Below, piece after piece: positions 58,756 through 64,000 of a stretch of DNA of 64,000 nt. Positions within the stretch are counted from its first letter, which is position 1. Each line of letters opens with the position of its first letter. The DNA comes from Heterodontus francisci (taxonomy: Eukaryota). The stretch covers positions 127,253,594 through 127,317,593 of the forward strand of contig NC_090377.1 in the NCBI RefSeq assembly GCF_036365525.1. Reading direction: 5' to 3'. The position numbers were made by a program, and so were the translations under genes. Under the pieces are notes generated by a model, which searched no databases, was not told the origin of the DNA, and saw only the letters and a program-made list of their open reading frames with translations.

Positions 58756-59794
58756 TGTTACGATCAAATGAGGAGGGATCGAAAGGTTTCCCTCTTTTCC
58801 TACTTCTTGTTTGACCACAACAGGTTTAATCTTTTCCTAAAGTGGATGTGTTGCCAATTCAGTAGGTGTTTGATTAATTACTTGCTGTAATCATAACAAG
58901 AAACAATCGGATAGGTTTTCTTGAGTTAACAAAGAAAGAGGTTAACTTTATTGTACCTAAACCGAANNNNNNNNNNNNNNNNNNNNNNNNNNNNNNNNNN
59001 NNNNNNNNNNNNNNNNNNNNNNNNNNNNNNNNNNNNNNNNNNNNNNNNNNNNNNNNNNNNNNNNNNNNNNNNNNNNNNNNNNNNNNNNNNNNNNNNNNNN
59101 NNNNNNNNNNNTAAGTTACAGAGTAGGGAAAGTTAGATTGGTTGAGTTAGAGTCTATATAAAAAGGTATACAGTCTGTGGAGTTTGGTGATTTGGCTGGT
59201 TTCTAGCTGAATTCAGTGGTCCTGAGGTTTTTAGTTTGAAGAGGTAGATGACTGGTTCGGTTCATCTCTTGGAGACAGCAATGTGGATGATTTCCTCCAA
59301 TGGGGTTTCTGATTGTAGCTGGAGTATGCAAAGGTGGTCAGCCAACAGGCAAGATTTGAAAGCTTTCAAGCGGTAATGGAGAGAGAGAGAGACCCCACTG
59401 GGTGTGCACGTGGCAGAGTCCAGTGCTTCTCCTCTCTCTGCTGCAGAAAGACACAAGCTTAAAACCACAGATGGGGAGGGACTTGTCACATGACATTCAG
59501 TCAGTCATTCAAACATAGCAGTTACCAGTATTTCCTCTTGCTAAAAAGAACAGGTAGTTCCTTTAAACTTTCTGAGTCTTGGTTCTTGCTGCGACATGAG
59601 CAGACATTTCATCTCCCCCCTCACAAGTATTGTAGTGTAGGATACAGTGTTGCAAATTAGGTATCCATCTTAAGCTGCCAGCAAAGTCATCTTTTCAGCT
59701 GGTCCTTTTAAAAAAAGTCTTTAAAAAAAAAATTCAGATCTCCAGTCAGTGGATTAAAGAAAATTATCATTCAACAAAGCACATTGGCGTAATA
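58756..59794 (-). repeat. 3' LTR of the Gypsy element (contains an assembly gap)
   Basis: Starts TATTACG right after the PPT and ends CGTAACA. U5 resembles 9380-9458. Confidence 0.82.
58967..59111. other. Assembly gap (145 N)
   Basis: Run of N. Confidence 1.
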
Positions 59795-60025
59795 CCTCCC
59801 CACCATGCGAAATGCAATGTGACAACGGAAACAATTCATTATGAGGTCACAAGTTAAAAAGAAACTGTACACAAACACTCTGTGCGTGCGAGAGAGTAAG
59901 ACTGTACACAGTCTCATTGTCATAGCCATATTCTCGTTTTTTTTTCATCCGGGGTTGTGAACGAGCACAACTGGGGAACTTCAACTGCTCTGACCGGGCT
60001 CAATCAGCCTGTGCTCCAGCATAAA

Positions 60026-60626
60026 CTGAATTTCCTCATGTCTTTCTACAATATCTTCCTTTGCCAGTTTCTCTATATCAGTGAACTCAACCCTGGATTC
60101 AAAGTTGTTCATAATTTTGTAAAGATTGTCCAGTGCTTTTTGTACATTTTTCTGTGTGCTCATCCAGTCCAACAGCTAGCTTTGCAGAGCACTGTGGAAA
60201 CCAATTGTCACCAAGTAAAATGGTGACTTCATTTGTATGGATTAGCTGTCCTGGCATAAATGCAAGTGGGCCAAATGTCACCATAACATCCTAAGACACT
60301 TTGTCAGGCAAAGATTTAAGCCTGCCTTTAAGTGCTTCATAGTCATTTTGTACTTTAACCCCGGTGCTGAATTTTTTCCCTTGTAGCTTGAGACCACCTA
60401 TCAATTTTGTCCTGCATCTCTTCCTGTTGTTCCAGCTCATTTAGCCTGGCCCACAATTCCTCCTCAGATCGGTTACTTGACTTGCAGTCACCACCACCAT
60501 CACCACCCTCCAAATCTACCACAAAAACCTTTTTGAGAGTAGGGTTTTCCTTTGGCTTATGAGCTTTTCTGTGTCTCCCTTCAGAATTTAAATCTTTAAT
60601 TTCTAGGTCTTCAGTCTGAATTTCCT
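60026..60626 (-). pseudogene. URI1: Circularly permuted, intronless URI1 fragment captured in Gypsy pol (candidate circRNA-derived retrocopy)
   Basis: 60626-60398 reads EIQTED..RHRKAHKP..EEELWARLNELEQQEE..IDR. 60397-60026 reads VVSS..IQH..NDYEALKGRLKSLPDKVS*DVMVTFGPLAFMPGQLIHTNEVTILLGDNWF..CSAK.AVGL.EH..MNNFESRVEFTD..DIVERHEEIQ. Both match recalled human URI1 residues ~40-229, but in swapped order. One stop and three frameshifts. Confidence 0.9.
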
Positions 60627-60653
60627 TCCAAACATGGGTCAGTTTCCTGGGCC

Positions 60654-62200
60654 CTAGGCATATTGTTTTATGGGAGGGGTCTCTTCTACATCCATATCAT
60701 GTAGGGTTAGAGTTGTGCACCCTGGTTTGTCCCTACAGATCCCTTTAAACGTTGTGAGCAGCCTTGCTAGGTCTCCTTTATGTTCTGCGTTTAAATAGGA
60801 GAGTACAGTGTCTAATGTCCCTAACATTTCAGTGTTAGCTAACCAGATGGTAGGGGGTTCGATGTGGGAATCCTCATGGCCTCCCTCTAACTTGTCCTCA
60901 TTGTCCGTTTCGCCCTCCTCTTTCCTGACTGCCTGACAGACTTGTGCTTCCCAGATGTGATACAATTTTAACATATTGATGTGGCACAGCCTTTTCCTTT
61001 TCCTCCGATCTGTGGTGTCTATTATGTAATTTACCTGGCTAATTCTCTTTACTGCTCTGTACAGGCCACTGAACCGGGCTTTCAATGGTTCTCCCTGTAT
61101 TGGTAATAGCACTAACACGTGGTCTCCAGGCTGAAATGTTCTGGCCTTGGCATATTTATCCGCCTGTCCTTTCATAGCTGTCTGGGAGGTTTTTAGGTAT
61201 TCCTGAGCCACCACACAGGCTCTCATGAGTCATTCTCGGAACATGGAGATGTAGTCTAACAGGGATGATTTATCCCTGTGTCCCAAACCACCTTTCCTTG
61301 ATTGGTTTTTGAGGACCTCTCACCTCGTGACCATAAACTAATTCAAAGGGGCTAAAGCCAGTGGACTCATTGGGGAGTCCCATGTAGCAAACAGAAGAAA
61401 TCCCAGCCCTTTGTCCCAGTCATGGGGGTACTCATAACAGTATGTACTGACCATTGTCTTTAGGGTCTGGTGGTACCGCTCCAAAGCCCCTTGTGACTGT
61501 GGGTGGTAGGCTGAGCACTTTAGCTGGGTTATGCCCAGATTACCCATGATCTTTTGAAAAATACTGCACATAAAATTTGTGCCCTGATCCAACTGGATCT
61601 CAGCAAGCAGCCCATATCGGGTGAAGAATTGGGTTAGCCCCACTAACACTACCTTGGCAGAGCTAGTTCTTAGAATGATAGCCTCTGGAAATCGGGTAGC
61701 TACATCTATAATGGTGAGAAGAGACTGGCAGCTCCCTTTTGTTTTCGGCAGGGGCCACACACAATCTACCAGCACTATGCTGAACGGTTCCCCAAAAGCC
61801 GGTATGGGAATTAGGGGTGCAGGTTTTAGTGCAGGTTGAGGCTTCCCCACAATCTCACACATGTGGCAAGTCTTACAGAACTCCACCACATCCCTGTGGA
61901 GTTGTGGCCAATGAAAATGCTGTCTGATGTGGGCTTGGGTTTTTCTGATACCGACATGATACCAGCCATTGGAATCTCATGGGCTATTCTCAAAATTTCC
62001 CTACAGTACCTCGGCGGCACCACTATCTGGTGAACCACTGTCCACTCTTCGTCTGCAGGTCTATAAGGAGGTCTCCACTTCCTCATCAACAACTCATCCT
62101 TTAAATAGTAGCACTTTGGAATTCCCTCTGCTTCAGCATCAATTTGGGCAGTCTGTGCTAACTTTTTTAACTCTAGGTCGGCTTGCTGCGCCGCGACCAA
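60654..62200 (-). pseudogene. Gypsy integrase plus linker and RT N-terminus
   Basis: LRIAHEIPMAG, FCKTCHMC, VLVDCV, IQLDQGTNF, SAYHPQSQGALERYHQTLK, FQPGDHVLV..ARFSG, HINMLK, then PPIKQ. Confidence 0.9.
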
Positions 62201-62330
62201 AGAAAACCTGTTTAACCCATCCTTTGGGTTAACTTCCCAAAGAAGGTTTCAGATAAACAGACAGCAGGGTCATCTGTCTACAATACCAGTTCAGGCTCCT
62301 CTGGTGGAGCTTGTTTGACCATGGACCAGG

Positions 62331-62775
62331 TCACCACACAGTCAGGAAAAATGTCAGGGACCTTTTCCTGTAACTGCTCTGTCTCCCTGGCCTCTTCCGT
62401 CTCTCTAAAACCACTGGGAAAGCTACCAACTTTGCCCCCGCCAGATCATTACCCAGGAGCAGGTCGACCCCATCCACAGGTAAACTAGGGACAACTCCCA
62501 TGGTTGCCAGTCCTGAAACAAGGTCGCACTCCAGGTGCACCCAGTATAAAGGTATGGGCATATACTTTCCTCCAACACCGTTTACTAGCACTCTGGCATT
62601 CAATGCACTCTCTGGGGGGGAAGGTCATGCCTTTTCCCAGCAGAAGGGATTGTGTGGCTCCTGTATCCCTAAGAATGACTATGGGCTTCCTTGCCTCACT
62701 CGAGGGGTATGGGGTCATTTTTCCTCTGGACACAAAATCCTGGTAACTCTCAGGGATTTTGTTAAGTTTTCCCAC
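62331..62775 (-). pseudogene. Gypsy aspartic protease
   Basis: ILRDTGATQSLL and LPVDGVDLLLGNDLAG. Confidence 0.88.
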
Positions 62776-62795
62776 ACTCTCAGCGGTAGATTTAC

Positions 62796-63771
62796 CTCCC
62801 TTCCCCTGTCAGCATTCCGAAGGGATCGTTCCCTCCGTGACACCCTGGTTCAGTCCTCCACTACCCCCACCACTTCATCCCCTTCCCACGGCACCTTCCC
62901 CTGCAATCGCAGGAGGTATAATACCTGCCCATTTACCTCCTCTCTCCTCACTATCCCAGGCCCCAAACACTCCTTTCAGGTGAAGCAGCGATTTAGCGAT
63001 TTACTTGTACTTCTTTCAATGTAGTATACTGTATTCGCTGCTCACAATGTGGTCTCCTCTACACTGGGGAGACCAAACGCAGACTGAGTGACCACTTTGC
63101 GGAACACCTCTGCTCAGTCCGCAAGCAGGACCCCGAGCTTCCGGTTGCTTGCCATTTCAACACTACCCCCCCTGCTCTCATGCTCACATCTCTGTCTTGG
63201 GATTGCTGCAGTGTTCCAGTGAACATCAACGCAAGCTCGAGGAACAGCATCTCATTTACCGATTAGGCACACTACAGCCTGCCAGACTAAACACTGAGTT
63301 CAATAATTTCAGAGCATGACAGGCCCCCCATTTTACTTTTATTTTTCGTTATTTTTTTCCTTTTCCATTTTTAACATTTTTTTTGGTCTTTTTTTTTGTG
63401 TTTATTTTATTTTATTTCATCTTAGTTTGTTCAGTTTGCTTACCCACTTTCTTTTCATGTTTGTACTTGCGGCTGTTCAATTTTCAGTCCATTAACACCC
63501 TTTCTGTTCTAATGCTTTGTCTTTCAATACACCATTAACATATCTTTGCTCCATGGCCTTCTGGTCAGCTATCCTGTGACCTTGTCCTATCGACACCTTC
63601 TCCTTTGTTATCTCTTGCCCCACCCCCCCTTTACTTGCTTATAACCTTTTACATTTCTAATATTTGCCAGTTCTGAAGAAGGGTCACTGACCTGAAATGT
63701 TAACTCTGCTTCTCTCTCCACAGATGCCGCCAGACCTGCTGAGTGTTTCCAGCATTTCTTGTTTGTATTAT
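62796..63771 (+). mobile_element. 5'-truncated Penelope-like element (GIY-YIG endonuclease) nested in Gypsy
   Basis: GTFPCNRRRYNTC, VVYCIRCSQCGLLYTGETKRRL..FAEH and VACHFN. 11-bp TSD GGTAGATTTAC / GGTAGGTTTAC. Confidence 0.9.
63669..63705 (+). ncRNA. Minimal type I hammerhead ribozyme-like motif in the Penelope 3' end
   Basis: AGTT-CTGAAGA-AGGGTC/GACCT-GAAA-TGTT-AACT: core boxes, stem II and stem I pairing are visible. Confidence 0.6.
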
Positions 63772-64000
63772 GGTAGGTTTACATGGTTTTCCTGCCGCTG
63801 TTAAAGCCACAGCCTGGTCCGCTGTACTTTTCATCAGGGCCCCTTTTCCAGCACTCATCTAGTGTACCCTGACTAAACCTATGGGTTTTCCCCATAACTT
63901 CCAGCAGTCAGCTCAAAGGTGACCTGCCTTTTTACAACGGAAACATACAGTCTTTTGGGAGTCACTCCTGTTCTCAGCACCTTCCTTCTTGGCTTGAGGA

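Follow-up and report, generated by a model that had tools for sequence, protein, structure and literature searches.

The window analysed here, a stretch of 64,000 nucleotides from the shark Heterodontus francisci (NCBI RefSeq assembly GCF_036365525.1, contig NC_090377.1, positions 127,253,594 to 127,317,593 of the forward strand), contains part of an LTR element that carries permuted exons of the host gene URI1. In window numbering the element extends from 58756 to 66144 and is bounded by LTRs of roughly 1 kb, with ACCA on either side; LTR pairs are also present in sister loci. Integrase domains (Integrase_H2C2, rve, Integrase_p58_C) lie upstream of the start of reverse transcriptase (RT). This gene order suggests that the carrier, a non-autonomous LTR retrotransposon, is a Gmr1-like Ty3/Gypsy element. 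The features are as follows, in the reading direction of the element.

65226-66144 (window numbering; L090), minus strand: 5' LTR, beyond the window, flanked by ACCA
63771..64000, minus strand: gag-region sequence common to sister copies
62796..63770, no strand assigned: nested insertion of about 975 nt, later than the element and absent from sister copies
60628..62795, minus strand: protease region (without a Pfam hit), integrase and RT leader, with stops and frameshifts
60616..60627, minus strand: 5' (element-to-URI1) copy of a 12-nt word, 11 of 12 positions intact (60627 is A)
60579..60615, minus strand: URI1 exon 6, 3' part, 37 nt, including 15 nt missing from today's parent gene
60398..60578, minus strand: URI1 exon 7, 181 nt, up to its splice donor
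60397..60398, minus strand: joint of back-splice type between the donor of exon 7 and the acceptor of exon 2
60065..60397, minus strand: URI1 exons 2, 3, 4 and 5, intronless, 36+1+79+134+83 nt here, frameshifted and with stops
60026..60064, minus strand: URI1 exon 6, 5' part, 39 nt, with the 12-nt word at its end for the second time (60026-60037)
59950..60025, minus strand: first approximately 25 RT codons, then an RT/RNase H deletion joint near 59955
58756..59794, minus strand: 3' LTR of roughly 1 kb, masked in part, with a purine tract before it (59795-59805) and the ACCA 4-nt target duplication after it

Three of the features of the element are named by resemblance. The protease region is presumably correct as named from its motif. 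The sequence after the 5' LTR (65200-65225; L090:1200-1225) resembles the complement of the 3' end of tRNA-Pro, and we take it to be primer-binding-site-like. The nested insertion at 62796-63770 has a plus-strand reading frame at 62997-63319 and is, we assume from its motif, GIY-YIG/Penelope-like.

The insert consists of URI1 exons in a circularly permuted order. Its peptide matches URI1 proteins, and the nearest is P0015, which is labelled Heterodontus francisci. The exons follow the order 6 (3' part)-7-2-3-4-5-6 (5' part) with no introns, and the exon 7 donor is joined to the exon 2 acceptor exactly at the splice sites, forming a non-colinear joint. Exons 2-7, those resident in the corresponding circle, are the only ones present, and there is no poly(A). 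The insert is 590 nt long, which is out of frame, and it is decayed in the window copy.

The parent gene, which encodes P0015 exon by exon, is found in the same genome at C17:43.697-43.760 Mb. Prefoldin family searches were flooded by retrocopies, and the parent was located with a C-terminal URI1 query, to which it is the sole match. Its exons 2-7, each with AG/GT ends, are 35, 79, 136, 83, 61 and 181 nt long, 575 in total. Each is single within the 120 kb fetched around the parent, a region that leaves out 43.67-43.69 Mb. A 15-nt stretch of exon 6, missing from the parent, is present in 37 of 39 insert-bearing loci, and it is still encoded by the URI1 genes of Carcharodon, Scyliorhinus, Mustelus, Pristiophorus and Rhinoraja. 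The spacing between the two copies of the 12-nt word has a median of 590 (range 576-600) across those loci, 30 of 39, where the two could both be located. Since 575 nt plus 15 nt gives 590, the insert corresponds to one full lap of exons 2-7, with the opening within exon 6. Most insert copies can be told from the parent at 17 of 508 sites.

Some other features were observed around the parent. URI1 exon 1 has a second copy, inverted and 23 kb upstream, with an identical translation (L057:3031-3120; C17:43783031-43783120). Between introns 1 and 7 there is only one inverted match, a weak one (267 nt, 72%), with no enrichment relative to other intron pairs. At a distance of 40 kb from the parent is a copy of the element with the insert (L058:7196-7696; C17:43657196-43657696). 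Alone among 94 matches, it has a 12-nt addition at the exon 5/6 joint, and 10 of these 12 nt match the first 12 nt of parent intron 5, possibly reflecting an old local gene conversion. At diagnostic sites this copy is no closer to the parent than others are (1 of 10).

A single 12-nt word marks both borders of the insert and is native to both partners. The initial annotation had described an 11-nt microhomology, AGGAAATTCAG, and this does have just two exact matches in the whole window, both on the minus strand and separated by 590 nt (60616-60626 and 60026-60036). The true shared word is one nucleotide longer, GAGGAAATTCAG, and the window copy lacks its first G (60627 is A, with G in the parent and most relatives). 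Allowing up to one mismatch, AGGAAATTCAG has four matches in the window against 2.61 expected, so the pair alone is within chance and its weight comes from its position. Each of the two falls exactly on one border of the URI1 insert, both here and in other copies of the element. The annotation also predicted that the word would occur once in the parent, at the permutation point, and once in insert-free members of the family, and both predictions held. GAGGAAATTCAG is found once in the fetched parent URI1 stretch, in exon 6, at the point where the circle is opened, and spliced URI1 mRNA contigs of runs X5, X7 and X8 run through it (with a joint that "goes back 571"). Across the genome, 82 insert-free two-anchor matches span the site, each with one copy of the word and scattered substitutions; the reversed control of this pattern gave 0 matches. 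The exact 12-mer is present in 15 of 30 fetched insert-free loci. It is the longest word recurrently common to URI1 exons 2-7 and these loci, followed by an 11-mer in 7 of 30. A shared word of at least 12 nt arose somewhere in 70 of 300 exon shuffles, so the existence of such a word is unremarkable and only its position counts. Compared with insert-free relatives, zero element bases are missing at the insertion site.

The element has also lost most of its RT region through a separate joint. Approximately 1.1 kb of RT/RNase H is missing from 60-75 nt past the exit of the insert in the window copy and in 38 of 39 insert-bearing loci. At this joint, which lies at a short homology, the beginning of RT is fused to sequence immediately past the pol stop, and the deletion is also found in insert-free copies. 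It occurs on two 3' UTR subtypes (window 59955; L067, L085, L088, L089), pointing to frequent template switching in the family. The annotation had stated that removing the insert restores a contiguous RT. The insert-free relatives do read through, but only the first approximately 25 RT codons are restored here, because the window copy lacks RT/RNase H just downstream.

Four forms of the element can be distinguished. RT without the insert is found in 25 of the 30 fetched insert-free loci, which continue into RT, and the other five are RT-deleted, a form with 11 pattern matches. RT-deleted copies with the insert have 80 pattern matches. Two copies, L004 and L110, have both the insert and RT (one pattern match). 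The circle-bearing lineage is several-fold commoner than its circle-free RT-less sister. A hand count of the base two positions past the exit gave G in 55 of the 80 chimeras (22 A, 1 T, 2 unclear) versus 0 of 11 insert-free RT-deleted copies. The idea that the latter are excision products of the main chimera lineage was considered and is ruled out by this difference. The insert-free RT-deleted copies belong to two 3' subtypes, and the chimeras printed belong to one. We infer that the simplest order is RT deletion first and capture second, with rare recombinants; recombination is required by this order because L004 and L110 carry both insert and RT.

The chimera has been amplified to several hundred copies. 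The insert query gave 594 first-look candidates, and all 40 that were scored contain nearly the whole insert, at 87-90% except for the window itself. Exact patterns matched the entry junction 96 times, always at the same point apart from small indels, and the exon 5/6 joint 94 times. These patterns match 8 of 38 and 10 of 38 sampled copies, respectively, which implies roughly 350-600 copies. Seven copies with the same entry junction lie at C7:115498306-115859072, six of them about 50 kb apart, forming a tandem segmental array that slightly inflates the copy counts. The copies differ pairwise by 9.8%, and the LTR pairs of ten elements have K2P distances of 0.10-0.16; no absolute age was derived from these values. 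A FastTree tree of 52 flanks (of 68 loci, 14 were dropped for having fewer than 600 aligned bases and 2 had no row) is star-shaped, has 2 weak diagnostic columns and therefore gives no order for the capture and the RT deletion. The chimeras all descend from a single capture, with one entry point in every copy seen, and were amplified as an LTR element.

The capture took place on the lineage leading to this shark. The Arg in GRHRK, which is specific to P0015, is present in 34 of 36 copies, while the copies retain older residues at positions altered in P0015, such as Val in exon 2 (36 of 37). The capture therefore fell on this shark's own branch but preceded these alterations. Contigs from two other organisms contain parts of the chimera. 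Those of organism B bridge the exit junction, and those of organism C bridge the exit and the exon 7-2 joint. The URI1 mRNA of organism B is itself without the 15 nt, and together with the bridging contigs this makes the capture older than the split of organisms A and B.

The structure of the insert is probably best explained by RT switching from the element RNA to a URI1 circular RNA at the shared 12-nt word, copying one lap, and returning at the same word. A circular RNA of exons 2-7 would have been packaged together with the element RNA, and RT would have been supplied in trans to the non-autonomous element. Within the particle, copy-choice could have occurred during minus-strand synthesis, when the end of the cDNA was the complement of the 12-mer and could pair with the circle. 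RT would then have copied 590 nt of the circle. If RNase H cut the circle behind the enzyme at the point of entry, the lap would end where it began. The new 3' end would again carry the 12-mer, allowing it to pair with the remaining element RNA and synthesis to resume. The circularity of the template is inferred from the exon order, the splice-exact joint, an insert equal to the circle in length, the native word and the lack of base loss, all of which are observed directly. A circular donor explains why this is a pure insertion with no loss of element sequence. The initial annotation had proposed either a template switch onto a circle or a single crossover with a circular cDNA, and the presence of the word in both partners together with the circle-length insert supports that proposal.

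Switching at microsimilarities is documented for LTR elements (PMC5131818). RNase H limits rolling-circle reverse transcription in vitro, where RTs with active RNase H show less rolling than those in which it is reduced (PMC9550094). In the same study wild-type MMLV and AMV RT exceeded one lap of a 42-nt circle in vitro, reaching up to about 150 nt. A single lap is therefore not forced by RNase H, and the RNase H step is plausible but not proven. Also, all copies come from one capture, so "exactly one lap" is a sample of one. The lack of inverted-repeat enrichment between introns 1 and 7 likewise counts against this reading.

Two other templates could give the same geometry. A circular RNA might have been converted to circular double-stranded cDNA that underwent a single DNA crossover with the element at the 12-nt match, a microhomology-mediated integration. 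We consider this unlikely, even though the expected product is identical (one lap, a duplicated word, and no loss from the element) and it accounts for the absence of a deletion, unlike all of the Drosophila cases of PMC5131818. It takes two rare steps, formation of the circular cDNA and then a crossover on 12 bp, while the family has other short-homology joints of the RT-switch type, namely the RT deletion, the mixed 3' subtypes and the recombinants with insert plus RT. A search for unbroken ancestral exon 6, which would mark two-lap copies or linear retrocopies, gave 0 matches at a sensitivity of about 21% per copy (8 of 38), so no free URI1 retrocopy of this kind was matched; because every copy goes back to the same origin, this does not count as separate evidence. 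The annotation had also held that a linear mRNA cannot produce this geometry in one event. That is correct for an ordinary mRNA, but a linear URI1 transcript with repeated exons (..6-7-2-3-4-5-6..), trans-spliced or derived from a duplication, could have let RT in at one word and out at the other. The duplication of exon 1 near the parent shows that the URI1 locus has rearranged, and it gives this transcript some basis. However, the exon 1 copy is inverted and upstream, exons 2-7 are single in the sequence fetched, and splice-exact scrambled joints mostly stem from circles, all of which make a repeated-exon template less likely still than the crossover. When contigs from four RNA-like sets were aligned to exons 6-7 of the parent, the loose ends listed at the exon 7 donor (31 others apart) ran into exon 8 only; since contigs drop rare forms, this speaks neither for nor against a circle today.

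A LINE-type retrocopy insertion with a 12-bp target site duplication (TSD) is extremely improbable. A direct repeat of TSD length does flank an intronless insert, but the insert is permuted and without poly(A), and its repeat is native to the parent, located exactly where the exon circle closes. The word is present once in the parent and once in insert-free relatives, which excludes a TSD, since only coincidence could make a TSD identical to the 12 nt at the closure of the circle. The LINE-mediated processed pseudogene is thus refuted by the word in parent URI1, and the annotation's argument that a repeat native to both partners is not a LINE-type TSD is borne out by parent exon 6 and the insert-free loci.

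Template switching onto a circular RNA may have wider significance. The locus supplies the parent gene, the insert-free element and the chimera, which are all three of the pieces needed to read the event. We tentatively suggest that it records an LTR-type RT acting on a circular RNA, resolved at its junctions, and it is quite possible that the scar (a pure insertion of circle length with one word duplicated) reflects the general route by which LTR-associated circRNA pseudogenes arise, including mouse circRFWD2. This scar can be sought in mouse and other genomes, and the switch can be tried in an RT assay. If the suggestion is true, extinct circRNA isoforms could be read and dated from genomes. 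The locus also shows that the shark germ line contained an RNA with URI1 exon 7 joined to exon 2 at a time before several changes that are now fixed in the parent. The captured circle is most likely a passenger, because its 590 nt are out of frame and the examined copies are decayed; if the suggestion is true, however, the circle may have helped the element to spread, given that the circle-bearing lineage outnumbers the RT-less circle-free sister. In this lineage, sequence from the several hundred genomic copies of the back-splice joint will look like circRNA reads.

The shark chimeras share features with several known systems. The closest are the mouse circRFWD2 pseudogenes, with 33 high-confidence and 9 further copies and MMERVK10C-int marked in the figure legends (Dong et al. 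2016, PMC4897178). They likewise have a non-colinear joint back to exon 2, exons of the circle only, no poly(A), many copies, and an association with LTR sequence. The authors state that the mechanism "remains mysterious". The text of PMC4897178 has no junction analysis, although its figures may show some, whereas the shark case resolves the junctions at both ends as well as the parent and the progenitor without the insert. The shark carrier is Gypsy/Gmr1-like, and its copy number is about tenfold higher than that given in the mouse text. LTR-mediated retrocopies (Tan et al. 2016, PMC5131818) are similar in having host exons within an LTR element, microsimilarity at the switches, and non-autonomous secondary spread. 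In all of the Drosophila cases described there the retrocopy replaced part of the element, and different words with a median of 6 bp are found at the two ends, while the shark insert replaced nothing and has one 12-nt word at both ends. The donors in the main text of that paper are linear mRNAs ("circ" occurs 0 times), and the shark donor is permuted. The carrier resembles the Gmr1 clade (PMC8220671) in having integrase upstream of RT, LTRs and a short target duplication, but the window copy lacks RT/RNase H. Human URI1 also makes a circular RNA, circURI1, which consists of exons 3-4 (review PMC9037454), versus exons 2-7 in the shark. In the literature covered, which includes few subscription papers, no capture of a circRNA by an LTR element with junction analysis was found beyond PMC4897178. 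Overall, circRNA pseudogenes beside LTR sequence were already known in mouse, and it is the junction-level signature that seems to be new.
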